A DNA stretch of 64,000 bases, from assembly GCF_026210795.1 (NCBI RefSeq), contig NC_089429.1, forward strand, positions 3,410,001 to 3,474,000, in the 5' to 3' direction. Source of the stretch: Rhizophagus irregularis. Taxonomy: Eukaryota. How positions within the stretch are numbered: position 1 is the first letter of the stretch; each line of letters starts with the position of its first letter. The position numbers and the translations under genes are program-made. Shown here piece after piece: positions 1 to 31,653 of this stretch. Under the pieces are notes generated by a model. That model ran no database searches and was not told the DNA's origin. It was given only the letters and a program-made list of their open reading frames with translations.

Positions 1-2183
1 CATTTTCGATTCAAAGTCTTCTTACAATCCATTTTGCGATGTCCAGAAACAAGCAGTGCATCGGGTCGATTGTAATGAACCGAATTGAATCGAAATATGG
101 TAGACGCAATAATTCAGACCATCTAACTCCAGTTTGCTTTACAAATCGTTTTTTTGCTGCGTCCGAATTACAGCGTCTCCATCCTATAGCATCTTGACGA
201 TGTTGAGCTGAATCACGGCAAGTAAACCATTCGTCTATTTCATTTATCTCAGCGAAATTATGCTGCCGATTTTCATAATTCGCCTTCTTTTCGCATCTAT
301 GACATGACACCAAAGCGGAAATATGTCCGCAAATTTTTCTTGCAGCCGGTATGTCACATGAAACAAGAATCAGAGCTGCGCGAATTCTTTTCCCTTCTTG
401 ACATTCATACGTTTGATTTAATGTCACTCCTTCCCAAAGTGACTTCAACTCATCAATGATTGGCGCCAGATAGTGATTAATCTTATGTAAACTTACTTCA
501 TCTGGGCCGGGTAATAAGCCAAAAATCAAGATATTATTACGCTTGAATCTGACATCCCTCGGAAAATTACCGATTGCAGCGTATATTACTCCGGTGCTGT
601 GGATTGTGCCGTCGAAGGGTTGAAACCAATCCAAATTCAAAATCAATCCGAGGTGCGAATCAGCAACATCAGATCGGAAAAAATTATTCAAACTTTCATC
701 TGTCGTTTCTTTAAAAGTTTTCCAAACTTCACCATCGTATATATCAGTTAGGATATTATCGAAAGTTGGACGATTTATCCAATGCCTTAGAGAATTTTCA
801 AAGTTAGGTTGACGATACTAAGGTTGCTTGCCAAAACCTAGAGGTTTAGGCAAGATGGCGTTTTGCCGAAAAGCGAAATTCTGCCGAAACTATATTAAAG
901 TTATATTAAAAAACTGGCGAAACTTTGGAGAAAGGCGAAACTGCTGAAACTTATTATAAATGCCGAAACTGCCGAAACTCTGCCAAAACTATAATAAATC
1001 TATAGTAAAATTTTGACGAAACTAATCGTAGGATTTTGAAGAGGTTTAGACAAGCAACCTTAGACGATACATTGCTTCCAATTGCTGCTTAATACTCACA
1101 AACGGAAATAATAATTCAGGTTTGATTGAAATTTGGTTATTTAACAATGTTGTTTTCTGTGCCAAAGGTGTTTGGCACAACCTTAATCTTTGAGTTGTCA
1201 AATTAGGAAATTCGACATGGCAACACTTCATGATGGCAGGTTGCTCATTTTGGAGAAAACTTTTTATTTCCTGTTTGTTGTATAATTTGTGGCATTTGGA
1301 ACACGCCACAAAACTATGAAACTGGTCTTCAAGATTAAGGGCTTTTCTTGCTAGATATAAAGTGTCAGGAAATGTGTCAAAATCAGGACTACCGATTTCT
1401 GTTAGAACAAGCTTCAAGAATTTTATCAATGATTCTGTAGCTGTTTCTGGTAAGTTAAACCTGGTTCAGAAGCTTATGATCCATAATAATATCCATAAGA
1501 ACCGATTATTTATTGATTGTTCAGTATCAGAATCTTGAAATATTTCGAAAGGTGGACATGAATAATCTTCAAAAATTTTGTGGTATTCGTCATCATTGGA
1601 TGGTTCATTATCGGATGATTCATTTCTATCATCAATATTTGCATCTTCCTCCGTAGTATATTCAGAAGATTCAGAAGATTTATCATCTACTATATCTCCT
1701 AATTCAGCAATTATAACCGGTCGAACATATTTTCTTGATCGTTGTCTACTAGGCAATTCAGCTTCCGATTCTCTCATTCGTGGTTCATCTGATATTGAGG
1801 CACTTTCGTATGGTTCGTTACTAGGCAATTCAGCTTCCAATCTTCGTGGTTCTCTGATATTGAGGCACTTTTAGCTTACTAGGCAATTCAGCTTCATCAG
1901 TTAGATGTACTTCTGTTCTTTCTGAATCATCATCTTCTGAATCTTGGTTAATTTCATGGATAGTTTTCGTACGATGATCTACTAATCGTCCATTACATTC
2001 AGAACAATTACATGCAACTAACCTTCCAATACGTGATGATGTAGGATAAGATTGATTTGAAGATTCTTCGTCAATTATATTTGACACTGATCTGGTTCTT
2101 TGTATACGTGATGAAGGTATGGCATGAGGTCTAGAATCTGATTCTTCATTGAGTATACTTGATAATGATCTTTTTCTCGTCAT
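1..2183 (-). pseudogene. Tnp2/Transposase_21-family (CACTA/EnSpm) transposase, disrupted, running off the window
   Basis: ORF pieces 1830-2183, 1466-1840, 1046-1429 and 11-691 carry CNCSEC, CSKCHKLY, LNLDWFQP, LLPGP, CDIPAARK and DPMHCLFL. Removing the MITE at 819-1062 restores EAMYRQPNFENSLRHW...IYDGEVWKTF. Confidence 0.88.
819..1062. mobile_element. hAT-family MITE (244 bp)
   Basis: TIR TAAGGTTGCTTG...CAAGCAACCTTA; perfect 8-bp TSD GACGATAC at 811-818 and 1063-1070; internal GCCGAAAC repeats; same TIR as 45377-49969. Confidence 0.95.
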
Positions 2184-2299
2184 TTTTGTGAACGTTTTTC
2201 AAAATAAAGTTAATTGTTAATAATATATCAATAATATCAATATAATTCGTTTAAAATACTTAAATTAGAATAAAATCATCAACTGCGTCGATGTAATAC

Positions 2300-2711
2300 T
2301 AAATTTATTAAAATCATCAATCTACACTTAAATTATAAATATAAATCATTCGATTAATAATATTAATAATAAAATAGACTATTCGATTAGTATGATGGCG
2401 AAAGTTTCTTAAAGTTTAATTTTTTAAACAACTTCATTTTTTCTTACCAACCTTTTTCTTTTTAGAGTTTAATCTTTTTAGAGTTTAATTGTCGATATAA
2501 TACTTAAATTATATTAAATTTATTAAAATCATCAACTATCACTTAAATTATAAATATTACATGATGTCGATTTGCGTTCAAATCGTTTGATTAATAATAT
2601 TAATAATAAAATAGACTATTCGATCAGTATGATAATGAAAGTTTCTTAAAGTTTAATTTTTTAAATAAAACTTCATTTTTTCTCACCAACCTTTTCTTTT
2701 TAGAGTTTTAA
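2300..2711. repeat. Two direct copies of a roughly 180-200 bp AT-rich block between the divergent genes
   Basis: ATTAATAATAAAATAGACTATTCGAT...AAAGTTTCTTAAAGTTTAATTTTTTAAA occurs at about 2300-2473 and 2515-2711. Confidence 0.75.
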
Positions 2712-2751
2712 CGTCTAATACTCTTCGCAACCAAAAAAAAATAAAAAAATA

Positions 2752-4773
2752 ATGAGCCAAAATTCGCAACCAAAAAAAATAATGATCCAAAATAGAAAAA
2801 ATAAAAATACTGAAAAAGGTTTGGCTAGTGATAATCGAAATAAAACGATTACTAACATCAATAAAAGTTCGTCCAATATCCAACAAGCTGTTGAAGGGAC
2901 TGCCACGCCAATTCATGAGCAAGCTCAAACACTAACATCAATAAAAGTTCGTCCAATATCCAACAAGCTGTTGAAGGAACTGCCACCCCAATTCATGAGC
3001 GAGCTCAAACTACTAATATCAATAAAAATTCGTCCAATATCCAACAAGCTGTTGAAGGGACTGCCACCCCAATTCATGAGCGAGCTCAAAGTGTAAAAGA
3101 GAAATATAAAAATCTTCGGCTTCCGGATTCGTCCAATACTCAACCACCATCTGCTGCGCCAAGTCATGAACGAGTCTAAAGTGTAAAAGAGAGATATAAA
3201 AATCTTTGGCTTCCGGTCAGATATCAAACTAATGAACCTACCCGCAATGATGATGATACATCAACAGGTCTGTATCGTGTATATATCGTCAGTTAGATTT
3301 AGTATTTTTTTTTTGTTGATTTTACATTTTTATACAGAGAATCGGAGGTTATCTCAAGAAGTATCCGATTTGCGTGCGAAGTGTTTACAGTTAGAACGAC
3401 GAAATAATGAATTAACCAAACATACAGCTGTCGTTGCCACTTAAATAGCTCGCTTACGAGAAGATAATGAATTTTTTGCTGGTGTTAACGCAGAATTCGG
3501 TTCTGAAAATGACGACTTGAAAGAAGAGGTTAACGAATTAAAAATGAAACTCGAACAATACCAGATACGATCATCATCTGAAAGCCTTGATGTTATTGAT
3601 GTTCCAGAAGAACGGTTAGCAAAACGGTTCAAATCGGATGAGTCAAAAAAAGTAAAGAAGACGGTACACTACGCCGAAAATCAACCAAAAGAAAAACAAG
3701 AAGAACAATGTGAAAAGGAGGCGAGGGTTTGTAATTTTGTAATTTTAGGCAGAATTGTACAGTCTTTATACTTTTATACTAATTGTTCCGATTTAAAGAT
3801 TGAAATGAAAATGATTCTCAAAACTATTAAACCTAATGACAATTTGGATGATAACGAAACATTTAATAGTCCAAAAAATGTTGAAATTCATAGTAGATTA
3901 ATTCCCGAACTTCGAAGGGCGATGTTTCCGAATTATAAACCTTCAGTAGCACAATTGACCAACTGGTTGAGCGCCCTCCATAAGTCGCGAAGATCACAAA
4001 CACAACTGAAAAAAAGTGGAAAAAGTGACGAGGACAGTCGTAGAGTTCACAACAACAGTCGCGTACAAAATGTAAAATTGTCGAATTTTTTCCTTTATCA
4101 TCATGTTAATGATTCATGCTAATTTTCTTATATATTTATCATTTAAGAAAAAATTGCGTCGAATTAAGGCTGCAAAGAATCTTTATAGGAAAAGTGACGA
4201 AAGAATAATTAGTTATGAAAAACGCCAATTATTAAAAATGTTGGCAAATCGATCTTACCACTCACCGGAAATCAGTGAGTCAGATGAAGAGAATCCAGAT
4301 AAGACGATCGTATGCGTCTATGATTATTTTTGGTGATCACAAGAGGTTTATACTTCGATATTTATTATACTTCGATATTTATACTTCGATATTTATACTT
4401 CGATATTTATACTTCGATATTTATACTTCAATATATCACTCTCGTTCCTTTCTTTATTTTGTATTTATTTTATTTATATTGTCTTTTTTAGCTAAAAAAT
4501 TTACTTCGAAACGTCATCGACTCACATTCAGCAGATATTCAAATGGCAAAATTACAACGACCTCGCCAGTATGATGATGAAGTTCAACACTTCGACCGAA
4601 TGCACCCTGAAGATGCTCCACAATGGTCATATGTCGAGCAAAAGGATTTTATATATGATATGGAAATCGATAGTAGAAGTGGTTTTGACGAAGATGAAGA
4701 CTATGGTGAAGAAACGGAAGAGGTGTTAATCGATAGTCAAAAAAGTGCAGCCGGTGATGATTTAGCTGAATGA
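2752..4773 (+). pseudogene. CACTA accessory gene: multi-exon, repetitive N-terminus, coiled coil, acidic tail, function unknown
   Basis: Exon-like ORF pieces are joined by GT-AG introns (e.g. 3268-3337). Homologous to 31654-33903 (QLTNWLSALHKSRR vs QLTKWLGCLHKSSY; HSPEISESDEE vs HSPEISETDEE). In-frame stops are present. Confidence 0.7.
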
Positions 4774-5148
4774 AGTGGGACTATCGATTACATTTATTTA
4801 AAAATTTTTTTTTTCATATATTATTCGTAAATATTTCTGATAATTAATATATAACGTTAATAAATTTAAATCGAATTTTCTATATATAATAATTTTCCGA
4901 ATTTAGTATGATTTAGTTCTGATTTATGTCCGATTTAAGTTTCGAAGTACATTTGATTGACTGTCTGAATTTAGTATGATTTAGTTCTGATTTATGTCCG
5001 ATTTAAGTTCCGAAGTACATCTGATTGGCAGTCAATCAGATAACAATCGGAATATATTTTTTTTGTAAAAATCGGACATATTTCAGCCGTAATTTGACCT
5101 AAAATCGGATATCCGATTTTTAGCCGATTTGCCTTATTTCGACTAGTG

Positions 5149-5548
5149 TATTTGAATATTGGGTAAATTTTAGGTTGATTTGCTATTTTGTCTGATTTTT
5201 TTTTGATTTCAACCAGCATCAATCAGCCATCAATCAAATATAATGATTTTTTGCCAAATTTTTATTGAATTTTTATTGAATTTTTATTGAATTGTCAATT
5301 TTCCATAAATCGGAAGTACATATTTGAATATTGGGTAAATTTTAGGTTGATTTGTCATTTTGTCAGATTTTTTTTTGATTTCAACTAGCATCAATCAGCT
5401 GTCAATCAAATATGATGATTTTTTTCTGGATTTTTATTAAATTGTCCGATTGGCATCAATCAGATGTGCCGATTTGTAATGTCTGTCAATTTTGGTCTGA
5501 TTTTTAGCTGATTTTCCATATGTCCAATTTTTTTGATTTCGACCAGTG
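5149..5548. mobile_element. Right-end remnant of a CACTGG-type element into which the 1-5148 element inserted
   Basis: Ends TTTCGACCAGTG at 5548; sequence closely matches about 44806-45364. Confidence 0.8.
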
Positions 5549-6230
5549 GTAATTTTATTTATTTGTAATTAATTAACAATTAAATAAATAAATTAATATT
5601 ATAATTAAATTTAAATTATAAATTTATTAGCATTCATATTATTGCATTAAATAAATATTATTTTTGATATGCGTTTAATAATAAAATCAGTAAATTATAG
5701 CTATTAGCCTATTAAGTCTATTAAATATACTTCAAATATGTATATCGGCATTATCGGATAAATGTATATTATCTATCTGATATTTTACTATAGGCAAACG
5801 TGGTATAGTAGTCTTCATCTTTATTAAATTTATTCGAACATTACAATTTAAAAATAAAAAGAAAAATTAAACAAATAAAACTAACTAAAAATAAAGCTAT
5901 ATAGTCTCCTAAGAAAAAATAAAGTAAAAAATTAATCTGAAAAAAAATAATTGCATTACACTAAATTTTCCCAGATCTTTCCCCTTGATATATTCCAACC
6001 AAAGTAGAAGCAACTATGCTAACAAAATAATGAATAGCGCGTCCACTATAAAAATTGACACTCCATCCTGCAAAAGTTGTTATTCAGTAGCACCGTTAAA
6101 TGACTCATAAAACCCAAAAAGTGATTAAACTAAGGCAAACCATATTTCATTGAGTTTTTTAACCAATCAGTTTCAGAGTCACATGAATCATGTAGGGTCA
6201 GAGGTGTAAAGATGAGTAAGGTAAATACAC

Positions 6231-6752
6231 CATCAGGAAATTTGTTTAAGCGTAATTTAGTGTAATATTTCAGAGGTGGTGTAAAATTTCGAAATATTAC
6301 ACTAAAAACGTAATATTACAAAAGTTTACGCTTTTAAATTTGAATAATTATAGTAATTTATGAATATCTTGCTATCTACTGATCCAATCATGACGATCTA
6401 TAGCTCATTGGAATCAGCTTATCAAGACGAATCGAATGGTAGCAAAATCATATCTCTATGTTCGATAGATGACTTTCTATTAATTTAAAACTTTATTGCA
6501 TACTATAGAGCGTTCTATCAACTGTAGAAATGCAATTTTACTACCATTCGATTCGTCTTGATGAGCTGGTTTCAATGAGCTATAGATCGTCTTGATTGGA
6601 TCAGTAAATAGCGAGATATTCTTAAATTACTATAATTATTTAAATTTAAAAGCGTAAACTTTTGTAATATTACGTTTTTAGTGTAATATTTCAAAATTTT
6701 ACATCACCTCCGAAATATTACACTAAATTACGCCTAAACAAATTTCCTGATG
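6231..6752. mobile_element. Fold-back MITE with long TIRs (CATCAGGAAATTTG), 2-bp TSD
   Basis: Inverted arms over 200 bp; AC on both flanks; second copy at 43200-43709. Confidence 0.9.
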
Positions 6753-7041
6753 ACAGATTTTGGCAAATTCGACGGCTGAGGAGTAGTTTTTAACTTATGT
6801 ATAATATTTATTGCATTTTCCCATCTATCTTTGTCATAGGAATGCAGATTTCAAATTCGTCTTCTGAATTTCTGAACAAAATTATTGTGAATGGCGGCGA
6901 TAACCTTCATCGCAGAATTTCTTAGGATAGATAAATCGACTAATAAGTCGACAAAAAGCTTGGGCAGACAGCCATGAACAAGGTCATAAGAGGACCAATT
7001 TGTAGAAGAAAAGGAGCAGCATGAAAGGGAAGAGTAATGAA

Positions 7042-7320
7042 CACTGGTAAAAAAATGGTCTATCCTACACATATCCTATACATATCTTACAAATATCGGG
7101 TACTCAAAATGTAGAAAATCATACACAAATAATACACATATCATACACATATCGGGTACTTATATATATAGTATACCTATTAGGTACCTGATATATGTAT
7201 GATATATATATTAGTACCCGATATGTGTATAATATGTGTATTATTTGTGTATGATTTTCTACATTTTGAGTACCCAATATGTGTAAGATATGTGTAGGAT
7301 AAATCATTTTTTTACCAGTG
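7042..7320. mobile_element. CACTG-type MITE (279 bp)
   Basis: TIR CACTGGTAAAAAAATG...CATTTTTTTACCAGTG; 3-bp TSD GAA; palindromic body. Confidence 0.95.
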
Positions 7321-8386
7321 GAACGGGGTAGGATCAATATCAGCTAATGTTCCTGCTTCTAGAATTTTAGAAATCAAATGATCTTGATAAGATTGGAGAG
7401 TTTGTTGCATATACAAGCGATGTTTATTGCACATAAAAAGGTGCATTAAATCTTCCATGCAGTCGATACAAAAATAGCAAGTTAATTCGTTCATGTATAA
7501 GTCAGGACGTGTTCTTTTAAGGTTTTTCAAAGTGGGTAACTCATCCAAGAAAAGCTTAAATTTAAAGATATGGTGCTATGAAGCATGTTCAAAAGTGAAG
7601 GAAACATCATGAGAAGGTTCAAATTTCAAAACGAACTAAGTAAGATCCCAATCAACAATATAATCTATAAGAAAATAATAGAAAAGTGAAGTGAAATCAC
7701 GTTAAATGTAATAATTTCCGCATCAACTGCGTTTAATAGTATTGTTTGAGAAGATGACGCAGATTGGACTCGCAGACAACATCATTATCATAAGTTAAGA
7801 CAAAATCGTGGGCAGAGACAAGATCCAAGCCAGAGATTAAAATACTGGACGATAAGGTATGAGCAATGTTGGCTAAGGAATCAGCAAAATCATTCAAATA
7901 GTTGTCAGAGTGGGTTGTGATATTGACTAGAAGAACAGTCAAATTCTTGGAGAAGATAGTTCGTTCAATAATAGCCTAGAGTTCAAAGTTCGTAGTTTTA
8001 TAATAAAGCCGGCTATTAGAATAAGTAGAAGAAAAACAACCTCAGAGGCCATTGATGGCAGTTTGCAAGTCAGTATAAATAGTAACTTCTGAGTCGCGAG
8101 GAGAGATAGTTAAGACTGCGTAGATAACGGCAGCTTCAGCTCAAAAAGAAAAGGGATTATTCCGAATAATGCCATGTGCATAAGTAGCAATAAAGTTGGG
8201 AAAGCCAGAATCTAATACAATTTGCATCCAAGACTAGTCCATAGAAACGTCAGAAGTTCCTAAGTTAATAAGAACTCCATTAGTGAAAAAGATATAATGT
8301 GAATCTGTAGAGGAAACTAAAGAAGAGTTAGCAAAAATAGAGGCAACCAAGGATTCAATAGTAGTAGGGATAGCAGGAGCCTCAAT

Positions 8387-9546
8387 AGGACCCCGAAGAA
8401 TACATATAATACTGGGATCCAATTTTGTATAAACTTACTATGTAATTTCTTAATAAGTTATATGTTTGAAATTGTATAACCAAATAGCAGTTACGCAAAA
8501 AGTCAGATTTTTATTTGTATAACAATAATGATTTTTACAATAAGTAAGATTTTCATTTTGTATAACGGATATTAGAATTTTTTTTTATATACGTTTAAAA
8601 TTTTTTAAAGTTTTTTTTTATTTTTTGTTTAAGAAATTTTTAAGATATTTTTTAATAAAGAGTTTTTTTATTTGTTTTAAAAAACACTTGAAATATTTTT
8701 TAATAGAAATTGTTTTTTGTTTAAGAAGTTTTTAAGGGTTCGTTTAAAGACATTTTTTTAATAAAAATGAAGAAATTTTTTTAAAATTCATTTACAAAAT
8801 TAAAAAAAATACATTTTATTATATATCTCAGCATCCAGTGATCATAGAGAAATGAAACACAGCTTATTAGATTCGTCTCAATACGATGAGTCGAATGGTG
8901 GTAGTTTCATATTTCTAGGCGCGATAGATACCGAGTTATGTGATAAAATGTAAAAATGCACAGTAGACGAAAATACAAAGTGTCGATGTGTGGTATAGCT
9001 CATCATCTATCACACCTAGAAACACGAAACTACTACCATTCGATTCGTCTTGTCAAGACGAATCCAACGAGCTGTGTTTTATCTTTTTACGATCACTGGG
9101 TGGTGAGATATATAACAAAATGTATTTTCTTTTATTTTGTAGTATACACCCAAATTTTTGCATAAAACTTACTATATTATACATATTGGGCATCAATATC
9201 TATCGGGTATTTAAAATTTTAACATGCAATTTTGTTTAAAAATTTTATTTAAGTTATTTTTTAATAATTTTTTTTAATAATTTTTTTTAAAAAAATTTTT
9301 TAAGTATTTGTTAGAATTTTTAAATAGTTTTTAATAATATTTATTAAAATTTTCAATAAAATTTATTTGAAATTTTTCTTTAAAAATTTTTTTTTATATA
9401 AACTCAGATTTATAATTGTATAATTTATAATAAAATTTGAACTTATGTGATGATTTTGTATAAAGCTTCTAATAAAATTAGGCGTATAAAGTTATATTAA
9501 AATTTTGGGTCTGGATCTGAGTTGTATATATATTCTTCGGGGTCCT
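8387..9546. mobile_element. Non-autonomous TIR element with 8-bp TSD, superfamily uncertain
   Basis: TIR AGGACCCCGAAGAATA...TATTCTTCGGGGTCCT; TSD GCCTCAAT at 8379-8386 and 9547-9554; internal inverted repeat at about 8805-9130. Confidence 0.93.
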
Positions 9547-12299
9547 GCCTCAATGGTAGCTATAGGGGAGAAATCAGGAGTAACATCCCATCTATTATAA
9601 TGAAAACGAACACCATCTTCTATATCAGCCCAAGTAAAAAGGGTAGTCACTTCAGTGGTATCGCATCTAATCCGTTCATTAGTAATGGGTAGGATAAGCG
9701 AATATAGTAAAGAGACCTTCAGTATGCAAAAAGTTAATTCAGCATTCCGTCTTTTAGAAGGAAGTAAAGGGTATGAGCGGTGCAACCAGGGCAGGGAAAA
9801 AGTTTAATGATATCGCCAGGTAAAGATTTACAATTAGGAGAAATCCAATATATAATGAAGCAGATGTCTCGATCTGGTTGGACCAAAAGTTGTTTACCAA
9901 AAATGGGAGAACCAATTTCATCTAACGTGACAATCCAGTTCATGGTAGTAGAAGGAGAAGAAAGACAGGAATCAAGTTTATAGAACGAGAAGACGTTCAC
10001 AGGTAGAAAAGTTATATATTCATCGATTAAGCAATTATTAGAATCAGAAATAGTAGTTTGTCATTGGATATCTTTATACCAAAAGGGGATGTGACCAGGG
10101 CCACATTCACTGGTCAAAAACTAGGCAAATGTGGCATAGTAGCTTTTATCTTTATTAAATTTATTCAAACATTACAATTTATAAAAAATAAAAAGAAAAA
10201 TATAAAATAAAACTAACTAAAAACAAAGCTATATAGTCTTCTAAGAAAAAATAAAGTAAAAAATTAATCTAAAAAGAAAAATCGCATTACACTAAATTTC
10301 CCTAGATTTTCCTCCTTGATATATTCCAACCAAAGTAGAAGCAACTATGCTAACAAAATAACGAATAGCGTGCCTACTATGAAAATCGACATTTCATCCT
10401 ACAAAAGCTGTTATTAAGTAGCACCGTTAGACAACCCATAAAACCCAAAAAGTGATTAAACCAAGGCAAACTAAATTTCATCGAGTTCTTCAACCAATCG
10501 GTTCCAAAGTCACATTAATCGTGTAGGGTTGGAGATGGTAAAGATGAGTAAGATGTGTACGATGACAGCGGCAAATTAGATGGCCTCAGAGTAGTTTTCA
10601 ACTTATGAGTAATGTTCATTGCGTTTTCCCATTGATAAGTTTCATAAGAACGCGGATTCCAAATTCTTCTGAATTTTAAACAAAATTATTATGGATAGCA
10701 GCGACAACCTTTATCGCAGAATTTCTTGGGATAGTTAAATCAACAAATAGGTCAACGAAAAGTTTAGGTAAACAGTCACGAACGAGAGCATAGGAGGACC
10801 AATTAGTAGAAAAAAAGGACCAACATGAAAGAGAGGTAAGTTTAGTAATAAACGGAGTAAGATCGATATCAGCCATTTTACCGGCTTTATGAATTTTTGA
10901 GATTAAATGATGTTGATAAGTTTATAGAATTTGTTACATAGGCAAATGACGTTTTTTGCACATGAAAAGGTGCATTAAATATTCCATGCGATCGATACAG
11001 GAACAGCAAGTTAATTTGTCCAAGTATAAGTCTGGGCGAACTCTTTTAAGCTTTTCCAACACAGGTAATTCATTTAAGAAAAGTTTAAATTTGAAGGTAT
11101 GGTGCTGAAAGGCATGTTCAAAAGTGAAAGATGCGTCATGAGAAGGTTCGAATTTCAAAGTGAAGCAAGTAAGATCCCAATCAACAACATAATCTATATT
11201 ATCTGATAATAAAGAAATGAAATGAAATCACGTTAGATGTAATAAATCACGCATCAACTGCGTTTGATAAAATTGCTTGAGAGGATTGGACTCGCAGATG
11301 ACATCATCATCATAGGTTAAAATGAAATCATGGGCAGAGGCAAGATCCAAGCCAGAGATTAAAATACTGGATGATAAAGTGTGAGCAGTATTGGCCAAGG
11401 AGTCGGCAAAATCATTCAAATAGTTGCCAGAATGTGCTTTAATTTTAATTGGGAGAACAATCAGATTCTTGAAGAGAATAGTTCGTTCAATAATAGCCCA
11501 AAGTTCAAAGTTCGTAGTTTTGTAATAAAACTGGCTATTAGAATAAGTAGAAGAAGAACAACCTCAAAGGCCATCAATAGCAGTTTGCGAGTCAGTATAA
11601 ATGATAACTTCTGAGTTACGAGGAGAGATAGTTAAAACTGCGTAAATAGCGGCAGCTTTAGCACGAGAAGAAGAGGAATTATCCCGAATAATGCCATGTG
11701 CATAAGTAGTGATGGAGTTGGGAAAGCCAGCATCTGGTACAATTTACATCCAAGACCAGCCCATAGAAACGTCAGGAATTCCTAAGTTAATAAGAGACCC
11801 ATCAGTGAAAAAAATGTAACGTGAGTCCGTAGAAGGAATTAAAAGAGAATTAGCAAAAACAGCGGCAGCTGATGAGGATTCAATAGTGGTAGAAATAATA
11901 GGAGTTTCAATGGCGACTACAGGAGAAAAATCAGGAGCAATATTCCATCTATTAAAATGGAGACGAACACAATCTTCTATATCAGCCCAAGTGAAAAGAG
12001 AAGTCACTTTAAAGGTATTGCATTTTATCTGTTCATTGGTGGTAGGTAAAATGAGCAAATATTATAAGGAAACCTTTGGTGTACAAAGAGTTAAATCAGC
12101 ATTCCGTCTTTTAGAAGGAAGTAAAGGATATGAGCAGCGCAACCAGGGCAGGAAATAAGCTTGATGATATCACCAGGCGAAGATTCACAATTGGGAGAAA
12201 TCCAATGGACAATAGAGCAGGTACCACAACCTGCCTGGACTAAAAGTTGTTTTCCAAAAATAGGAGAACCAAATTCGTCCAACATGACAATCCAATTTA

Positions 12300-14603: not shown

Positions 14604-15889
14604 TAAAGCTCCGCATGAGCCAGAGCCAGCTGCAAGAGCTGGCTCAAGCTTTTAATCTGTGCCATTGAGCTATTGGCGATTAAATTGGTTTAGATCGCAC
14701 CATGTAAACTGAAATGGCTCGAGCCGGTGATAGGCTCGGCTCAAAAAGCTCAAGCCAGTAATAGGCTCGGCTCAAAAAGCTCAAGCTGACTTGAGTTATC
14801 ATACAAAAAACGTTGCGAAAACGTTTTTTGTATAACATTATATTAAAAAAAACGTTTCGCAACGTTTTTTTTAATTCTTTAGTAAAAAACGTTGCGAAAA
14901 CGTTTTTTTTACTATATTATTTTAGAAAAAAATGTTTCGCAACATTTTTTTAAATTCTTTAGTAAAAAAACGTTGCGAAAACATTTTTTTTATCTAATAT
15001 TAGAAAAAAACGTTTCGCAACATTTTTCTAAATTCTTTAATAAAAAAACGTTGCGAAAATGTTTTTTTCACTATATTATATTAGAAAAAAATGTTTCGCA
15101 ACGTTTTTTTAAGTTCTTTAATAAAAAACGTTGCGAAAATGTTTTTTTCACTATATTATATTGGAAAAAACGTTTCGCAACGTTTTTTTAAGTTCTTTAA
15201 TAAAAAAATGTTGCGAAAACGTTTTTTCAGCTATATTATATTGGAAAAAACGTTTTGCAACGTTTTTTAAATTCTTTAGTAAAACGTTGTGAAAACGTTT
15301 TTCACTATATTATTTTAGAAAAAAACATTTTCGCAACGTTTTTTTAAATTCTTTAGTAAAAAAACGTTGCGAAAACATTTTTTTCACAATATTATATTAG
15401 AAAAAAACGTTTTGCAACGTTTTTTTAAGTTCTTTAATAAAAAAACGTTGTGAAAACATTTTTTTCACAATATTATATTAGAAAAAAACGTTTCGCAACA
15501 TTTTTTTAAGTTCTTTAATAAAAAAACGTTGCAAAAACATTTTTTTCACAATATTATATTAGAAAAAAACGTTTCGCAACATTTTTTTAAGTTCTTTAAT
15601 AAAAAAATGTTGCGAAAACGTTTTTTTCACAATATTATTTTAGAACAAAACGTTTCACAACGTTTTTTTTAATTCTTTAATAAAAAAATGTTGCGAAACG
15701 TTTTTCTGAAGATAAAGCTCGAGCGAAGCTTGAACTCGAGGCCATGAAAACTCGCGGTTCGCTCGGCGTTCACTTTAGCAGGCCTAAAATTTTTATGGCT
15801 CGGCTTATTCTGACTTAGGCCAGAATTTTTTTTTCGAGCTGAGGCTGAGCCCAGGTATCGGCGTCGGCTCGCCCACGTACGGAGCTTTA
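14604..15889. mobile_element. Non-autonomous hAT-type element with internal palindromic minisatellite
   Basis: TIR TAAAGCTCCG...CGGAGCTTTA; 8-bp TSD AAGGTATT/GAGGTATT (one mismatch); GAGCC/GGCTC subterminal repeats. Confidence 0.88.
14805..15710. repeat. Tandem repeat, about 77-bp unit, 11-12 copies
   Basis: Alternating AAAAAACGTTGCGAAAACGTTTTTT and its near reverse complement AAAAAACGTTTCGCAACGTTTTTT. Confidence 0.92.
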
Positions 15890-16471
15890 GAGGTATTATT
15901 AATCTGATAATATTCTTCTGTAATGGATAACATAGATTCCATGCTGGCTTTTGATGAGGAGACAAGAGTAAAGTCATCTATAAATACTAGATTATTAATC
16001 CGCAAATCAGGGGAAGAGTCTTGAAATACAGTTAAAGAGGGTGTAAAAAGAACATAAGGGTCTATCATTTTGTTCTTCAAAACAGTAAGTAAAGGATCAA
16101 TATAAATAATCCATAAAAGAGAAGAAATAACTTCATTTTGATCAATACCAATGCGAACCCTATAAGCAGGAGTAGATCCATGAGCAATGAAAATGCTATT
16201 ACACTAGTCAAAAACCAGGCAAACGTGGCATAGTAGCCTTTATCTTTATTAAATTTATTCGAACTTTGACAATTTACAAAAATAAAAAGAAAGATATAAA
16301 AATAAAACTAACTAAAAACAAAGCTATATAGTCTCCTAAGAAAAAATAAAGTAAAATATTAATCTAAAAAGAAAAATCGCATTACACTAAATTTCCCCAG
16401 ATCTTCCCCCTTGATATATTCCAACCAAAGTAGAAGCAACTATGCTAACAAAATAACGAATAGCGCGCCCA

Positions 16472-19400
16472 CTATAAAAATCGACACTCCATCCTGCAAA
16501 AGCTGTTATTAAGTAGCACCGTTAGATGACCCATAAAACCCGAAAAGTGATTAAACCAAGGCAAACCATATTTCATCGAGTTCTTCAACCAATCGGTTCC
16601 GGAGTCACGTGAATCGTGTAGGGTCGGAGGTGGTAAAGATGAGTAAGGTATGTACGTCGACAATGGCAGATTGGATGGCTTCAGAGTAGTTTTCAACTTA
16701 TAGGTAATATGCATCGCGTTTTCCCATCTACTTTTCTCATAAGAACGCGGATTCCAGATTCGTCTTCTGAATTTCTGGACAAAATTGTTATGAATAGCAG
16801 CGATGACTTTAATCGCAGAAGTTCTTGGAATGGATAAATCAACAAATAAGTCGATGAAGAGTTTGGGTAAGCAACCACGGATAAGGGCGAAGGAGGACCA
16901 ATTTGTAGAAAAAAAGGACCAGCATGAAAGAGAAGTAAGTTTAGCTATAAATGGAGTAGGATCAATATCAGCCAAATTGCTCGCTTTCAGAAGTTTGGAA
17001 ATCAAATGATTTTGATAAGATTGGAGAATTTGTTGCATAGGTAGACGTCGCTTTTTGCACATAAAAAGGTGCATCAGGTCTTCCATGCGGTCGATACAAG
17101 AACGGCAAGTTAATTCGTCCATGTATAAGTCTGGTCGGGTCCGTTTAAGCTTTTCCAGTGTAGGCAAATCATCCAAGAAAAGTTTGAATTTAAAGGTTAG
17201 GTGTCTTGAAGCGTGCTCAGGAGTAAAGGATGCATCATGAGAGGGCTTAAAATTTAAAGTGAACCAAGTAAGTTCCCAGTCAACAATATAATCTATATTA
17301 GTTGATAATAAAGAAATAAAGTGAAATCGCGTTAAGTTTAACAAATCGCGCATTAACTGCGTTTGATAATATTGTTTTAGAAGGTGTCACGGATTAAATT
17401 CACAAACAACATCATTGTCATAAATTAAGACAAAATCATGGGCAGAGGCCAGGTCCATTCCAGAGATCAAAATACTGGATGACGCGGTATGAGCAGTATT
17501 GGCCAAGGAGTCAGCAAAATCATTCAAGTAATTGCCAGAATGAGCTTTAACTTTGACGGGAAGGACAGTCAAATTTTTTGAGAGGATGGTTCGTTCGATA
17601 ATAGCCCAAAGTTCAAAATTTGTAGTTTTATAGTACAAACGACTATTTGAGTAGATAGAGGAAAAACAACTTCGAAGACCATCAATGGCAGTTTGCGAGT
17701 CAGTATAAATAGTAACTTCAGAGTCGCGTGGAGAAATAGTTAAAACTGCATAAATAGCAGCAGCCTCAGCTCGAGAAGAAGAGGGATTATCTCGTATGAG
17801 GCCGTGAGCATAAGTGGCGATAGAGTTAGGAAAACCTGCATCAGGGACTATTTGCATCCAAGACCAGCCCATAGAGACATCGGGAGTGCCTAAATTGATA
17901 AGAGACCCATCAGTGAAAAAGGTATAGCGCGAATCCAAGGAAACGACCAGCGGGGAATTTGCAAAGACAGCAGCAGCCGAGGATTCAATAGTGACAGGAG
18001 TATTAGGGGCTATAGCGGTATCTGCAGAAGAAGAATCGGAATCAAAATCCAATCTACTATAATAATGACAGACACCATCTTCTATATCAGCCCAGGTAAA
18101 AGGTGAAGTCACTTCAGAGGTAGTTCGTCTAATTCGTTCATTGGTAGTGGGCAAAATAAGCGAATGTTGTAAAGGGACCGTAGGCGTACAAAGGGTTAAA
18201 TCAGCATTCCGTTTTTTGGAAGGAGGCAAAGGAGTATGAGCAGCGCAACCAGGGCAAGGAGAAAGTCTAATAAGATCACCAGGCGAAGATTCACAATCAG
18301 GAGAAATCCAGTGAACAATAGAACAAGTACCACGACTTGCTTGGACTAAAAGTTGTTTGCCAAAAATGGGAGAACCATAATCGTCCAATGTGACAATCCA
18401 ATTTTTTGTAGTAGGAGGAGAAGATAAACAAGGAGTCAAATCATAAAAGGAAGAGTCAATCGTAGGCGTAAAATTAAACTGATCCATCAAACGATTATTG
18501 GAGTCAGGAATAGTGGTAGCATGTTGAATATCTTTGTACCAATAAGGGATACGGCCAGGGCCACGTCGTCCAACCAAATTGTCATAGTAAGCCTTCCAGG
18601 AAATTAAATGAGTTCCTTGGGGAGTAACAAGCTGAGATAAATAAAACAGTTGTCGTTTACGCAGGATGGGAAAATAGGCTTTAAAGTTTAAAGGCTTTAG
18701 GCGTCATGCATTCAAATAAAGGAACGCGTCCATCTATCAAGGACAAATTTGGAAGCTTCGATAATTGAGTGTGAAGCAACCGAAAAGGAGTAGAAGACAA
18801 GAGAGCAATAGTGCATGCGATATAATCTTTCTTGAAAGAAAATAGAGAAGACCATATAGACCAATCTTTAATTAAAAGGGGAGAAATAGGAATCAAAAAA
18901 TTATATTGAATTAAACTCAATCTATAAATAAAAAGAGATTGAATAAAAACAGAAGAAGAATTAGCCATTAAAAATAAATTAGTAATATGACATTGTCGTT
19001 GATGAGCAAACAAATTAATCAAGCCCAAGGCATGAGACAAAAATAAAATGGAATTAGGTAAAGAACGAGAAAAGTTTGCTTTATGCTTTACAACAGATCG
19101 TATACTTCTCGTTATTAGGTGACAATCAGATTCAGATAAGTGAGTAACTTGCATCCGGTATTCAAGTTTCGGTATAAGGACGGCATTATGTAAATACACA
19201 ACTTGTTTGGAAGAGAGCTTTGCAGGGCGAATAGTCGCTGCGAATAAGCAGCATTCACGTTTGAGTTGCTTTTTGACAAAATCCCGGGAACTTTTAATGT
19301 TGAACCAGACACCTAAAAAACGAAAAGAAGTTGTCATGGAAATTGGGGTAATAATAATGGAAGGAACACTATTTAAAGAGGATAAATCCAAATTAAAAGT

Positions 19401-22106
19401 AATAGGGGATATAACAGAATTCGAAGTCAAGGGCAACGAATTAGTAATTAACACATATTTGTTATGATTAGCGGAAGTGTTATTGATCTGATAAAATTCT
19501 TCAGTAATGGATAACATAAATTCCATGCCAGCTTTTGACGAGGAAATAAGAGTAGAGTCATCCATAAATGCTAAATTATTAATCTTCAAATCAAGAGAAG
19601 GACTTGGAGAATCAATTAAAGACGGTGTAGAAAGAACATAAGGGTCCATCATCTCATTCTTCAGAATAGTAAGTAAGGGATCAATATAAATGACCCATAA
19701 GAGAGGAGAAATAACTTCGCCTTGGTCAATGCCAATGCGAACCCTATAAGCAGGCGTAGATCCATGAGCAGTGAAAACGCGATTAGTGCGTTTCATAAAA
19801 AGTGAAAGGATGAACTTAACAGCGGAGGCTGGAAGACGTATACGTTCTAAAGCGAAACGTAACATCGTTAGATCAACTGAATCAAAAGCTTTAGAAATGT
19901 CTTGGGAAAGAATCCAAAGTGGGTTTTTGTTGACATCAGCATCATGGATAATAGATTCTAGAGTAATAATAGGGTCACGGCAAGAACCTCCAGGAAGACC
20001 AGCGAAGTTACCACCTTTAAGGACATGATGTGAAGCCATAATGGTAGAAAGGCGATTATAAAAAAGTTTGACAAGAGATTTCCTAATCACTTCAAGTAGA
20101 GTAATAGGGCGAGTATTTTTTAATTGACACTTCCATTCGTGAGGTTTGGGGATGGGAAAAACCATTGCTTGTCGCCATAAGTTAGGAATATCAGCTTTGG
20201 AAAGGCATGCTTGAATCAAAATGAGGAGTAAAGCTGAGGTACGAGATCCGAGATGTTTGAGCATTTCATAGGTAATCATGGAAGGACCAGAGGCTTTACC
20301 GTTAGGAGTAGAAGAAACGGTGGATAACCATTCATCAAGGGTAGGGGGATTCATTAAAGAATCATAGATGGAGGAGGACACATCATCCATAGGTTGATAG
20401 GCAGAAGACCATCTATCAGGTAGTGCATCAATAGATACAGGAGGAGTGGACTTTATAGGTACAAAGTTTTGGAAATGGTTAACAACAGCGTCATCTATGT
20501 CCTTAGGAGCAGTTAACAACTGAGGTTGAGAAGGATGGTCGATGAAGATACGGTCCAAAGTGATACGGCGACAGGTGCGAGAAAGCGCTGAATCAATAAA
20601 GGAGGAAAGGTCAGTTTCAAAATTATTATTCCTATCGTCCAAGTGAGCACGGATGGAGGAGTCTTGGAATTCTTTTTCTTGAAGTAAATGAAATCCCCGT
20701 AAGGATTTTGAAATATTGGATAAATCATCAAGAAGTGACTTGAAATTATCTTGTCGACATGATGAAAGAGAAAAGGGCAGAGTAGGAATGAAAGTAAAAA
20801 CTTTCTTATATAATTGAAGAATGTTTTGAAGTCGATGCAAATGTATAGACCACTTATGTTCATGAGCAGTAGAATAAGTTAAAGGATATTTGCGCAATAG
20901 ACGTATCGAATGCATTAGGCGATTTAAAAACCGATAATTTTGAGTTAAAATTTCCAGATCTTTAGGAACCTTAGGAGTATAATTATTGCCAACAGTAGAA
21001 GAAGGTAAAGTAACGTTGGCGGATTTAAGGATTCGCGATTGAAGATATTCGCACATCTGATTGATATGCCAGGAGGAAAAGGTTGATGGTGAAACATCAC
21101 ATAAGGCATCAGCTTTGTCAGCAAATTCTGTCCATTGAGTATCAGTTACAGAATCAAATTTGAAAACGCGACGGGTTTGGCGCTTAAATTGACGAGCGCG
21201 AGCCAATTTGGTAGAGGCAAAAAGTAAAGACATATCATAATATGTGATGACAGGGTTGTGATCAGATGTGCAGACGTCTTGAGCATTAAAAATACAGGCA
21301 GTAAGAGCAAATCCTTTGAGAAGAGGGCAGGACCATACATAATCAACACGAGTAATGTGGTCATTGCGTTGAAAGGTACCTAAAGAGTCGGAAAGATTAA
21401 TGGGTGTAAAATCTTTATAACCATGAGAAAGGAGATGAAAAAGTAATCGGTGTATATGTTTTGAAGCAATTTGAGGTTGATTAAAATAAATAGGATAATA
21501 TTTATCTAAATGCATATTAAAATCGCCACAAACAGCATGATAAAAACCAGCTTGTTTAGTAAGGATAAGTTGTTGAATAAGCAAATCAATAGTGTCAGTG
21601 CGCAGAACACTTTCAGCAGGGGGAGGGATATAAATAACAAATATACGCAATTTAACATTGCCTTTGAAATATAAATCAACAGAAAGCAGTCGTGAAGAAT
21701 GAGATTTAAAGTCTTGTACATGTGATGCAAGAGAATTTTCTATAAATAGGGAAACACCACCAGAAGAAAGAATTTGTATAGAAGTATCCAAATTCGAAGA
21801 AAACACAGTATAATTAGAAAGTCGTTTGGATAAAAACTTCATTTGTTTAGGGTGGATATGAGTATCAACAATACCGCCAAAGGAAATATGTTTTAGAGAA
21901 AAGAAGGTAGAAATCTCTTCTAATTTAGTCTGACCATGCATTTTAAGGCCATTGACATTAAAAGAGGAAATATTAAATGAATTGGGGATAGGAGAAGTGT
22001 TACTAGGAGAAGAAAATAATGATTCATGTGAAAAAAGTTCAGTAACATTATCGGGGTTGGGAGGGTTTCGTACAAAGGTGTCATAATTAAAATTATTGTC
22101 CGACAT
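16472..22106 (-). pseudogene. LINE ORF2: AP-endonuclease, reverse transcriptase, RNase H, C-terminal Cys/His knuckle; one frameshift and one nonsense codon
   Basis: APE motifs SFNVNGL, GDFN, SDH; RT motifs QDISKAFDSV, QGEVISPLL, LAFMDD; RNase H motifs FTDGS, SRAEAAA, YTDSQ, KVKAHSG, NDFAD; CRSC...EDLMHLFMC. 7-bp duplication near 18680 and CGA>TGA at 17387. Confidence 0.93.
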
Positions 22107-22156
22107 TAAAACACAATGATAAAAACAGTCGGGGAGATAAGATTTGAAGAAGAAAA

Positions 22157-24279
22157 TTAAATAGAAGAAGCTGAATCAGCTTGTTCTGGGGGGCACCACC
22201 AATGGAGCTAATGAATTGTTTGATATGACCAGTAAGTTGGTCCAATTTACTTTCAATAACGACTCTACTATTTTTGAGATCATTAATTTCTTCTTGCGTG
22301 GAGGAGATAGGGGTAAAAGGAGGAGCATTTGGAGAAAGGTGAGAAGAAGGAAGTGATGTGTCAGGGAATAATAGTGAATGTAGGCGAAGGTCGCGTTAAA
22401 ATGCTTTTGGGGGGCAGTGAAGATTTAGCGGAAGACTGAATATTAAGCGGAACATGAGTTACAGGGGCATCTTTGCATGAGGTCCGGTTCAGGTTCGTTG
22501 GGCGCAGGGAAGTGGATCGAGGCCAAGGTGTGATTCAATACGAGTCATCCGTTGGTCAGCAAGTTCAAGAGCGGAGATGCGTTTGTGAAAGTTGGCAACT
22601 TCACATTGTAATTCTCGCAAAAGGTTTAAAATGTTATTAGCATCATCAGGAGATAATGCAGAGTTAGGAGTTTGTCGGGGTAAAGGACGTGCTGTAGAAC
22701 GAGAGGAGGAAGAAAAGGAGACCGATCGTTCTTTGCTATTATGGCGGGCACGTTGAGAGGTATTGGGAGGGGGTTTGTTATGATTATTAGCATTATTAGT
22801 GCGGTCGTGGGAAACGTTATTGGCTCGTCCAGAATTGGAAACAGATCGATCTTTAGATTTGGAGCGAGATCGAGAGCGAGAACGTGCATTGGCAGTATTA
22901 GAATTGGAGCGATGAGGTTGATTAACATTAAATCGTTCTTTGAGTTTTGCAACGGGGTCGCGAGTGCGACTTCTACCTCTGGTTTGTTTGAGTGGGCAAA
23001 AATTTGGAGCACAACCTAATTTGCCACATCTGCGACAAAGTTTGTTAGTATTATCTGGGGAGGACCAGAAAAGCACTTTGCCTTGGAAGCTGACAGTCTG
23101 TTCCATAGCAGCATCCATGGTTTCTTGGGAATTGAAGGTGACATAAGCCCATCTTTTGGGCTTGTAAGAGTTTAGAGAAAGCGGCACATTGACAGCTTTA
23201 GCGCCGAAAGTACAGTAAGGGGAAGCCAAATTGATATCCTTAACATTGGGGGGAAGTTGGGTGAGGGTGGCAACGTATTGACGGCGCGCAGCCTTTTGAT
23301 CCACAGTATAAGAACATGGAGTAATTCTGAGGCAGGTGGAGAAACAGTACACAGCCTATTGGTCGGTAAAACGAGCAATAAAATCGGCGTGATCATAAAC
23401 AATGCGGGCTTGCTGAACTTTGGCATTAGGCCTGGAGAAAAGGCGGCAAGAGGTGATATTACCAAATTTCTTAAAATAAGCCATGAGGTTGTCTTTTTTA
23501 ATGAAGAAAGGGATATCGGTAACTTGGATAGCCCGGAGATCTTCATTGGATCGGAGTTGGCGAGGGTCATGTGCATAAAAGATTAAGTCAGGGAACTCGG
23601 GATGGGTGGAACCAACGCACAAATCGCGTGCTTCAGCTGTATGGAAGTGGATAACGAGGCGTTTGGCTTCACCAGAGCCAGTCATACGTGCTTTTCCAGT
23701 GAACGACTCGTAAGTTTCTAAAAAAAGGTTATTAACAGCCTCAATAAGGGCTTTGTTGGTAGGGAAATTCTTAAGAGATTCAGGGGCAGCATTCGGTGCA
23801 GCCGCAGCCTGAAAATCTTCTCTGGTTATGGCGAGGGTCACCACTGGATCTGGAGTATGATCGTCATCTGGAGCACCATTGGTATCCAAATTGGGTGACG
23901 CGTTAGGGGGTTGTTGCAAGTCTTTGTTTAAAGGTGCATGCATAGACGCGTCCACATTTCCAGAAGACGCGACGTGACTGGGCGCAGTTGGCGCAGCAGA
24001 TTTTTTCGGGGAGGAGGTCGAAGTATTTTCGCCAGAGATATTTTGTTGAGGAGAAGAGGAAAGTCCATCTACTCCAACGTCAGCCGTCTGGACATCGGCA
24101 ACGTAGTCTTCTTCCATAGAATTTTCGGTAATCATACGATTACGTTTCTGCTGGACAGTGTTTTCACCATCAGAGCTTGAGTTATCGGAGTTATTATTAT
24201 TTTTTCGTTCTTGACGGGAAGCTTTCCTACTATTAGGGTTATGACTTCCACGGCCTCTCTTGGCATAGTTACCAGACAT
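22157..24279 (-). pseudogene. LINE ORF1: RRM-like domains, Cys knuckle, RS-rich segment, coiled coil; disrupted
   Basis: RRM-like AIQVTDIP...FKKFGNI and LTQLPPN...WAYVTF; CRRCGKLGCAPNFC; in-frame TAG at 23356 and frameshift(s) near 22500. Confidence 0.82.
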
Positions 24280-24420
24280 AGTAGAGGGCTTTGAGTTGAG
24301 AATATATAAAATATAAAATTTTATTAGTAGTTTGTATTATTTTTTAAAAATAATAAAAAATATTTTTCGTCGAAAATTTCGTTTTTGAAAAATTCAGGAG
24401 AGAGTTACTACTGCATCATC

Positions 24421-24696
24421 AAAACCAATATAGTACAGTATACAGATATGTATTCGATATGTGTAGTATTAATGCAGAAAATCAGGTACCCGATATGTGT
24501 AAGATATGTGTAAATATATATATCGTTTACATATCGTATACATATCATATACATATCGGTACCCGATATGTATATGATATATATATTTACATATATCTTA
24601 CACATATCGGGTACCTGATTTTCTGCATTAATACTACACATATCGGGTACATATCTGATACATATCTGCTACCCGATATATTGGTTTTTGACCAGT
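24421..24696. mobile_element. Body and right end of the CACTG MITE that was split by LINE copy 3
   Basis: Fold-back sequence ending TTGGTTTTTGACCAGT (terminal G missing); its left TIR is 16202-16217. Confidence 0.85.
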
Positions 24697-30131: not shown

Positions 30132-31653
30132 GTTTAGGGTAAAGATGAGTATCAACGATACCACCGAAGGAAATATGTTTAAGGGAAAAAAAAGAAGAAA
30201 TTTGTTCTATTTTAGTTTGATCATGCATTCTAAGGCCATTAACATTAAAAGAGGAAATATTAAAAGAATTAGGGATAGGGGAAGTGTTACTGGGAGAAAA
30301 AAATAAAGATTCATGTGAGAAGAAATCAGTAACAAGATCAGAGTTGAGAGGGTTTTGTACAAAGGTATCATAATTAAAATTATTATCCAACATTAAAACA
30401 CAATGATAAAAATAGCCAGGGAGATAAAATTTCAAAAAGAAAATTAAACAGAAGAAGCTGAATCATCAGCTTGCTCCAAGGAAGCACTACTAATGAAGCT
30501 AATGAATTATTTGATATGGCCAGTAAGCTGGTCCAGTTTACTTTAATAACAACTCTACTATTCTTGAAATCGTTAATTTCATCTTGCGTAGAGGAGATAG
30601 GAGTAAATGGAGGAGCACTTGGAGAAAGAAGAGAGGAGGAGTGCAGCAAGGTAGGAGCAGGAGCAATGGTAGTTGAAGAAGGTTGAGGCTGCGTTAAAAT
30701 ACTTTTTGGAGGAGAAAAAGATTTAGCTGACGGCTGAATGTTGAGCAGAACATGGGATACAGGAGCATCGGTAGTTGAAGAAGGTTAAGGCCACGTTAAA
30801 ATACTTTTTGGAGGAGAAAAAGATTTAGCTGATGGCTGAATGTTGAGCGGAACATGGGATACAGGAGCATCCACTGGTCAAAATAGTCCAAATCGGCCAG
30901 AAATCGGATGTCCGATTTTAAGCTGAATTTGGTGATAAAGATGGCCAATTTATTAATTTAGGTAAAGTTCCGATTGGCAGGCCAATTGACGCTGATCAGA
31001 ATATCGAATTGCTTAGTATTTTTAATCTGAATTGTTTAAAAAAATATATTCATAAATTTACCGAATTGCAGTGAATTTATTCTGAATTATGATAAATTTT
31101 GATAAATTGTGATAAATTTTAATCTGAATTGCAGTAAATTTTAATCTGAATTACAGTAAATTTTAATCTGAATTGCGGTAAATTTTCTATTCTGAATTGC
31201 GGTAAATTTATTCTGAATTGCGGTAAATTTATTCTGAATTGCGGTAAATTTTAATCTGAATTGCGGTAAATTTTAATCTGAATTGCGGTAAATGTTCTAT
31301 TCTGAATTGCGGTAAATTTTCTATTCTGAATTGCGGTAAATTTTCTATTCTGAATTGCGGTAAATTTTCTATTCTGAATTGCGGTAAATTTATTCTGAAT
31401 TGCAGTAAATTTTCTATTCTGAATTGCAGTAAATTTGCAGTAAATTTTATTTTGAATTTATTCTGAATTGCAGTAAATTTGCAGTAAATTTATTTCGAAT
31501 TGTAATTAATTTTTTTCTGAATTAAGACAAATTTATTTTGAATTATGGAAAATTCTAATACTAATAATTTGGAATATTAATTATATATATATATATATAT
31601 ATAGATTTTTGACGAAAAAAAGAAAGTTTTCTACCGAATTAATTCAGATTTGT

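Follow-up and report, generated by a model that had tools for sequence, protein, structure and literature searches.

LINEs that insert into other transposons are known from frogs and crocodilians. In Xenopus, Tx1L (and Tx2L) is described as an APE-type non-LTR retrotransposon that occupies one site in the DNA transposon Tx1D, where its endonuclease nicks (PMC1950540, PMC6719617, PMC4494074). Tx1D itself is given as a non-autonomous element of the piggyBac family (PMC4494074). For crocodilians, Tx1-Mar and SINEU-3 are reported within Mariner-N4_AMi and Tx1-9_AMi within Harbingers (PMC4494074). The Tx1 clade is described from animals in the same account, and Tx1 and R1 are named as the APE groups with target specificity in PMC4640811. 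In Rhizophagus irregularis, automated annotation lists 'LINE R1' and 'L1-Tx1' (PMC8647823, PMC11075540), and the CMC superfamily (CACTA/EnSpm, including Plavaka) is reported to be prevalent (PMC11075540). Where these two reports list LINE and CMC families, targeting is not mentioned, and the main text of PMC11075540 has no occurrence of the whole word 'target'; its TE library or Supplementary Fig. 1 may already name the LINE family discussed below. In literature outside Repbase and subscription papers, no report of fungal LINEs targeting TIRs or kinase genes was found by title or abstract. Neither a fungal host nor a target at the very end of a transposon was found described.

Here we analyse a 64-kb stretch of R. 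irregularis DNA (the window), AT-rich and dense in repeats, in which a LINE, designated LINE-A, recurs at the ends of CACTA-type MITEs. Like Tx1L on Tx1D, LINE-A is an APE LINE at one site of a non-autonomous DNA transposon. It differs from that animal, piggyBac-based system in its fungal host, its CACTA-type target, its use of the terminal 16 nt, its having hit both ends, and its RNase H. With the crocodilian Tx1-Mar and SINEU-3 it shares a preference for DNA transposons, a 16-nt duplication, tandem copies around the duplication and the same test for hitch-hiking, whereas those are Tx1-clade elements of animals, and their reported sites lie outside the TIR, in the interior (near position 240, or about 300 bp from the end; PMC4494074). 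The R1-clade LINEs R1Bm, SART1Bm and TRAS1 are likewise sequence-specific APE LINEs, but their targets are insect rDNA and telomeric repeats, and SART1 has a poly(A) tail whereas LINE-A has none.

LINE-A is an APE-type LINE without poly(A)

Profile searches recovered an ORF1 with an RRM followed by an ORF2 with the order APE, RT, RNase H. In copy 3, whose positions (1-8203) serve as coordinates for all copies, ORF1 (about 22492-24279) carries the RRM and is broken by a single in-frame stop, ORF2 (16472-22106) by a frameshift and a stop. Copy 3 ORF2 matches RVT_1 at 4e-21 and RNase H at 6e-12; its endonuclease match (Exo_endo_phos_2, 2.7e-4) lies under the curated Pfam cut-off, and the RRM matches of ORF1 are weak. 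Among its metagenome relatives, L011 and L015 match Exo_endo_phos. RNase H sits between RT and a C-terminal motif that we take to be of the CCHC type. The separate ORF1 and the ORF2 with endonuclease then RT place LINE-A among APE-type non-LTR retrotransposons. It bears the marks of target-primed insertion: 5' truncation (copies 1, 2, 4 and 5), target duplication (15 nt at copy 4) and no LTR. The APE motifs NVNG, DTH, YIP, GDFN, RVD and SDH are present in LINE-A and kept in most of 13 aligned relatives. At 21900-21930 (minus strand) the ORF2 endonuclease reads D-T-H, as do 11 of the 13 relatives, the other two being gapped there; the motif is normally E-T-H, E being the usual metal-binding residue. 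No match to the EN domain was found among PDB sequences.

The 3' end of LINE-A lacks poly(A). TTTGCC closes copies 1-4, 27 nt past AATAAA, and a boundary at GCC is supported by a distant poly(A)-tailed relative (L074), in which TTGCC stands directly before the A tail. The first-pass annotation had used the flank of copy 1 to fix the true LINE end; that flank does differ, but it sets the end to within a few bases only. Folded as RNA, the last 279 nt gave z = -1.9, with 8 of 200 shuffles equally stable, and we claim no structure.

The same annotation had called this LINE Tx1-like, which we retain as an analogy only. A Tx1-clade ORF2 is typically without RNase H; LINE-A has one (6e-12) and a fungal host. 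Against PDB sequences its RT scores R2 and L1 alike (66-72 bits), and Atlas matches are to RVT_1 clusters only. Because of the RNase H, the fungal host and an RT without placement, we do not file LINE-A as Tx1. The R1 clade and I group have the order APE-RT-RNase H-CCHC, with which LINE-A agrees, in order alone and with its RT unplaced. Protein relatives of the long ORF of copy 3 reach 98% identity, and those named among the 120 of 145 matches listed come from R. irregularis or R. clarus, which points to a Rhizophagus host; more distant relatives include Entrophospora proteins. The window also holds a second, distant and decayed LINE (55662-59473, plus strand); it encodes RNase H, is 30% identical to LINE-A, and has a long run of A residues nearby, around 59914.

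LINE-A ends at one position in CACTG termini

Features of the window, numbered from its first nucleotide
Feature	Position	Strand	Description
Second decayed Tnp2 transposase	11-817	-	
LINE-A copy 1	5793-10107	-	5'-truncated, copy-3 positions 5852-8203; split by three later insertions
Intact related CACTG MITE	7042-7320	.	3-bp GAA duplication; no LINE in its TIRs
TIR terminal 16 nt at copy 2 3' end	10108-10123	+	CACTG TIR, 15/16 match
LINE-A copy 2	10124-30871	-	copy-3 positions 1950-8203, five pieces; hosts composite unit
Left TTA target duplication of MITE unit, inside copy 2	16199-16201	+	
Outer left TIR piece, at copy 3 3' end	16202-16217	+	16 nt
LINE-A copy 3	16218-24412	-	full length
Inner left TIR copy	24410-24427	+	7 nt exact (24421-24427); longer extent putative
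MITE core	24421-24695	.	palindromic; parts 74-77% identical to intact MITE at 7042
Inner right TIR copy (copy 4 15-nt duplication)	24682-24696	-	
LINE-A copy 4	24696-26389	+	5'-truncated at copy-3 position 6518; 1.7 kb
Outer right TIR piece, at copy 4 3' end	26390-26405	-	16 nt
Right TTA target duplication	26406-26408	+	
Complete CACTG terminus, different subfamily	30872-30887	+	joined to copy 2 5' end
Decayed CACTA-type (Tnp2, PF02992) transposase	41372-43177	+	
LINE-A copy 5	49970-53284	-	copy-3 positions 4844-8194; 5' flank not TIR

At copies 2, 3 and 4, the last on the opposite strand, the GCC end of the LINE is joined directly to a 16-nt CACTG/CACTA terminus, exactly as the first-pass annotation had read these junctions. 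Three of the four intact LINE-A 3' ends in the window therefore bear the TIR piece in one register; the exception is copy 1, whose 3' flank has no recognisable TIR. In copy 5 another insertion has removed the 3' tip, about 9 nt, so this copy does not bear on the point. A 14-nt terminus pattern has 12 matches at two or fewer mismatches against 1.05 expected, a count reached by 0 of 100 shuffles, and all four 16-mer matches at one mismatch or fewer in the window lie at LINE-A junctions.

Compared with the piece at 10108, the terminus at which copy 2 begins is the same in the outer 12 of 16 nt and differs in the inner 4. Next to it, at 30658-30871, is a tandem duplication of 102 nt, and each of its units stops precisely at the 5' truncation point of copy 2; reverse transcription that primed anew may have left this scar. 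Copy 1 adjoins the TIR piece at 10108 with its 5' end, and its 5' remainder is absent from the window. Copy 1 may have inserted at the junction of copy 2 or may host a larger insertion; no right-hand CACTG end in the window carries ATT. Stop density is similar in copies 1 (11 in 685 codons), 2 (23 in 1839) and 5 (12 in 982). Tandem arrays with periods of about 80, 120 and 135 nt lie at 14802-15715, 28756-29627 and 61107-63222; the first is also palindromic, and two of the three are within insertions in copy 2.

The probable target is a CACTA-type MITE

The MITEs have CACTA/CACTG termini and 3-bp duplications, TTA around 16202-26405 and GAA around 7042-7320, and no coding capacity, as expected of non-autonomous CMC/CACTA elements. 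The intact, LINE-free copy at 7042 indicates that the MITE family exists independently. CACTG/CACTA ends, 3-bp duplications and Tnp2 remains are what these targets have in common with the CMC elements of R. irregularis. The Tnp2/CACTA superfamily likely moves the MITEs, a link suggested by Tnp2 remains and related termini in the window, where no end pair with a matching duplication is linked to any transposase. CACTA termini of another type stand at 5148, 60744 and 63620, and their positions 15-21 resemble the last 7 nt of LINE-A, such that these 7 nt together with the TIR piece mimic that type over its positions 1-21 (about 22 nt). The likeness may be a relic or, since relatives that use other targets or bear poly(A) can also end in GCC, chance.

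Other elements are also present in the window. Two 92% identical copies of a 520-nt palindromic MITE with CATCAGG-type ends lie at 6231-6752, inside LINE-A copy 1, and at 43200-43709, at the end of a Tnp2 gene. Remains of a hAT transposase (BED finger, dimerisation domain) occupy 45797-47917, and a Myb/SANT ORF at 48721-49182 may belong to a Harbinger element.

One MITE carries LINE-A in both TIRs

Copy 2 is interrupted by a 10.2-kb unit with CACT ends (16202-26405), bounded by the 3-bp TTA duplication. From left to right it consists of an outer TIR piece, copy 3, a 275-nt MITE core that is a near-perfect palindrome, copy 4 reversed, and an outer TIR piece. Since both copies lie inside one TTA-bounded unit, a single MITE has a LINE in each of its TIRs, in the same register. 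This occupation of the left and right TIR by copies 3 and 4 was absent from the first-pass annotation. Around copy 4 the duplication is 15 nt (24682-24696 and 26391-26405). Around copy 3, AAAACCA is present at both 16211-16217 and 24421-24427, as had been noted; the 5' end of this copy, formerly put at 24420, is remapped from contigs to near 24409-24412, and for this reason the 7-nt duplication is probably a decayed 15-nt one. With its outer ends 8.2 and 1.7 kb from the core, the doubly invaded MITE is probably immobile.

TIR sequence flanks both ends of LINE-A at other loci

The 3' and 5' ends of LINE-A were followed separately in contigs from 6 of 24 listed public runs. Counts refer to the 24 of 243 loose-end rows listed for the 3' side and the 16 of 19 listed for the 5' side, and are not genome-wide fractions. 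Among the 3' rows, 5, 6 and 7 contigs (X4, X5 and X9, respectively) pass through the TIR piece and then diverge at about 50% agreement, which indicates many different flanks; 4 contigs each in X3 and X4 depart at the LINE end without a TIR piece. Contig depth over 16206-16219 relative to 16234-16247 was 0.10-0.29, but depth is not copy number and we do not count it as evidence.

Among the 5' rows, 8 depart from the reference at 24406-24413, and 5 of these, representing 4 distinct sequences, enter the TIR. The X12 row continues from the TIR into the MITE core. In rows from X1 and X5, which have the same sequence, the TIR is repeated in tandem at a 17-nt period with a variant in common. One X5 row runs from the TIR into the 3' end of another LINE copy, head to tail with one TIR piece between, the pattern described for SINEU-3 (PMC4494074), and a further X5 row enters the TIR and is too short for context. 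The other 3 of the 8 rows (4 contigs) are not TIR. In 4 runs no contig spans 24415-24470, the 5' junction of copy 3 and the left MITE arm, and these are uninformative.

The near-exact 16-mers, all four of them at LINE junctions, together with the variable flanks past the TIR piece, raise the question of whether the 16 nt are a 3' tail of the LINE itself, captured once and copied to unrelated sites. That the 3' piece of copy 2 is of the MITE-A type, though its 5' neighbour is another subfamily, would suit such a tail. Random insertion of a tailed LINE does not predict TIR at the 5' ends of copies 2, 3 and 4 and in 5 of 8 contig rows, however, so the 16 nt are not merely carried along. The 5'-side TIR already largely refutes this explanation, which we regard as very improbable. 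A LINE has been called target-specific when more than 20% of its flanks are one repeat type, a cut-off taken from PMC4494074; 3 of 4 3' ends in the window and 5 of the 8 listed 5' rows pass it, both small samples. Specificity is nonetheless incomplete or eroded, given the 3' end of copy 1, the 5' end of copy 5 and the contigs without TIR.

Junction-bearing copies are separate insertions

Copies at the same site have different 5' ends, copy 3 being full length and copy 4 starting at 6518 of 8203. Between these two, dN/dS is 0.10 (95% bootstrap 0.06-0.15) at dS 0.37, with 96 of 137 differences at third codon positions, and copy 4 has 0 in-frame stops in 474 codons. The ratio is 0.17 for copies 3 and 2 (dS 0.59) and 0.12 for copies 4 and 2 (dS 0.84), and it is below 0.4 in all 10 copy pairs. 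The different 5' ends and a dN/dS of 0.10 at dS 0.37 argue that copies 3 and 4 do not descend from one neutrally diverged founder. The same ratio speaks against the idea that copy 4 arose from copy 3 by simple inverted duplication, which we reject. Two of the 17 R. irregularis proteins listed, P0019 and P0037, resemble copy 4 more than copy 3, indicating that the copy-4 lineage has members elsewhere. Identity between copies 3 and 4 reaches 98% in the first 200 nt and again in the last ~300 nt. Some conversion between the two arms is possible but would not be required, as all 17 proteins, the 2 copy-4-like ones among them, conserve the first segment at 95-100%.

Copy 2 groups with copies 1 and 5, apart from 3 and 4 (bootstrap 100), and a protein segment agrees: copies 1, 2 and 5 read NRW..PDFSP there, and copy 3 reads SRLDFDSDSS. 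The earlier view that two diverged subfamilies share the junction is borne out. Support was also obtained for its proposal of repeated sequence-specific targeting, for which it had looked to different 5' truncations in the same site and to low dN/dS between junction-bearing subfamilies; both were found (dN/dS 0.10-0.17).

The alternative it offered was a dual-mode hybrid, in which a few founding insertions made a LINE-plus-MITE composite that then spread by CACTA cut-and-paste or by duplication through its outer 16-nt ends. The 10.2-kb unit has the CACT ends and the 3-bp TTA duplication that such a composite would have, but the same duplication is expected if the MITE inserted first, and direct support for the hybrid did not emerge. 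The likeness to the 5148-type terminus over about 22 nt could be taken in its favour but may be a coincidence, given that relatives aimed at other targets, or carrying poly(A), share the GCC end. An X12 contig across a LINE-TIR-MITE junction has a depth of 312 against 65 for another junction contig, though depth, again, does not measure copy number. Against the hybrid, CACTA ends as a rule require subterminal repeats beside the TIR. Moreover, the junction-bearing copies have diverged under purifying selection and differ in 5' ends and contexts. We consider such hitch-hiking unlikely.

Relatives occupy other fixed sites

An RT alignment search against metagenomes retrieved the best 80 of 424 loci, at 35-52% identity. 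A CACTG TIR at the LINE end was found in 0 of these 80, and the exact 33-nt LINE 3'-end pattern in 0 stretches of the metagenome contigs; viral contigs gave 46 pattern matches and 0 relatives. Tails end in an A run in 12 of 27 metagenome loci inspected. An RT tree built with FastTree from 98 sequences (midpoint-rooted, sequences under 260 aa excluded, no named clade references) joins 14 metagenome loci to the Rhizophagus LINE family with support 0.999; the junction is visible in 5 of the 14. The GCC end of L015 falls within the coding strand of a CACTA transposase 47% identical to that of the window, and one and the same 9-10-nt piece of the transposase site is retained at the L015 5' junction and where L005 and L006 have tandem junctions. 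These junctions (L015:7783-9381, L015:1-80, L005:5298-5345, L006:6338-6385) place a close relative in the transposase coding sequence just before a PNL motif. In L002 the GCC end precedes a 19-nt motif that recurs (15/19) before the 5' end of L001, of the same family. This is the closest metagenome family (49% RT identity), with the same TIR-like motif at its 5' and 3' junctions (L001:127-145; L002:5546-5564).

Outside the 14-locus clade, five loci lie antisense at DLG codons of kinase genes (L008:6324-6339; L009:1108-1123; L011:577-592; L012:84-99 and 7823-7838; L033:282-297). All three flanks tested have Pfam kinase matches, and four 5' flanks are only 81-91% alike over about 100 nt, so that different kinase paralogues are involved. 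L012 has a 16-nt duplication with one mismatch, and at the 3' junction of L011 the site is absent. These relatives comprise a LINE family without poly(A) and a sister family, and their position suggests LINEs that target a multigene family of the host. The few loci, in metagenome assemblies, indicate that fixed-site insertion without poly(A) occurs elsewhere in the lineage. Related families differ both in target and in predicted endonuclease loop.

A model for insertion into the TIR

For the fixed 3' junction, the TIR on both sides of copies 3 and 4, the separate lineages, the TIR at 5' ends elsewhere and the head-to-tail copies, we favour sequence-specific target-primed insertion of LINE-A into the CACTG TIR with a 15-16-nt duplication. 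We give this reading, whose nicking step is deduced from the junctions, a probability of about 0.78. The LINE-A endonuclease would recognise the TIR and nick just inside position 16. The first nick would fall on the strand reading CACTG..AAAAACCA, immediately 3' of AAAAACCA, and would prime reverse transcription beginning from the GCC end. A second break, at the terminus or 1 nt inside it, would yield the 15-16-nt duplication. AGT microhomology between the TIR end and the LINE 5' end may guide full-length joining, and the duplicated TIR piece could be targeted again. Less certainly, the transcript may extend beyond GCC by a few bases derived from the TIR, which would pair with the primer; for SART1/R1, pairing of the RNA 3' end with the target has been proposed (PMC7265360). 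Such read-through into the TIR could explain the differing inner 4 nt of copy 2, as could, alternatively, a later insertion at 30872.

It is also conceivable that the LINE does not read the site with its own endonuclease and uses nicks or open DNA that arise when the CACTA transposase acts or when the MITE extrudes a hairpin. The transposase cuts at the transposon terminus, where the outer end of the duplication lies, and the MITE core is a near-perfect palindrome. The priming junction, however, is 16 nt inside the end, away from the transposase cut, and junctions already bordered by LINE sequence were used again. Relatives occupy fixed coding motifs without a TIR, and the APE motifs are intact. 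Guidance by breaks or structure therefore seems improbable to us.

Implications

Targeted insertion of LINE-A would extend transposon-on-transposon targeting, known for animal Tx1, to a fungus and to the TIR, a sequence that the transposase must recognise. Insertions there could freeze CACTA elements, and the LINE would gain an abundant, harmless site. They would also confuse repeat annotation of mycorrhizal genomes. More tentatively, LINE-A may be part of a fungal radiation, as yet undescribed and distinct from Tx1 and R1, of APE LINEs with sequence specificity that dropped poly(A) and repeatedly switched among multicopy targets. The switched targets would be CACTA termini (LINE-A), a CACTA transposase codon motif (L015), a TIR-like motif (L001/L002) and DLG codons of the expanded kinase family (L008, L009, L011, L012 and L033). 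If so, LINE-A would be a hyperparasite by which transposon ends are duplicated and disabled, while relatives of LINE-A would have a family of protein-coding host genes as their target. Families that differ in target and in predicted endonuclease loop would offer a natural series for studying how APE specificity changes, and a kinase-targeting relative would bear on the turnover of the large kinase family in these fungi.
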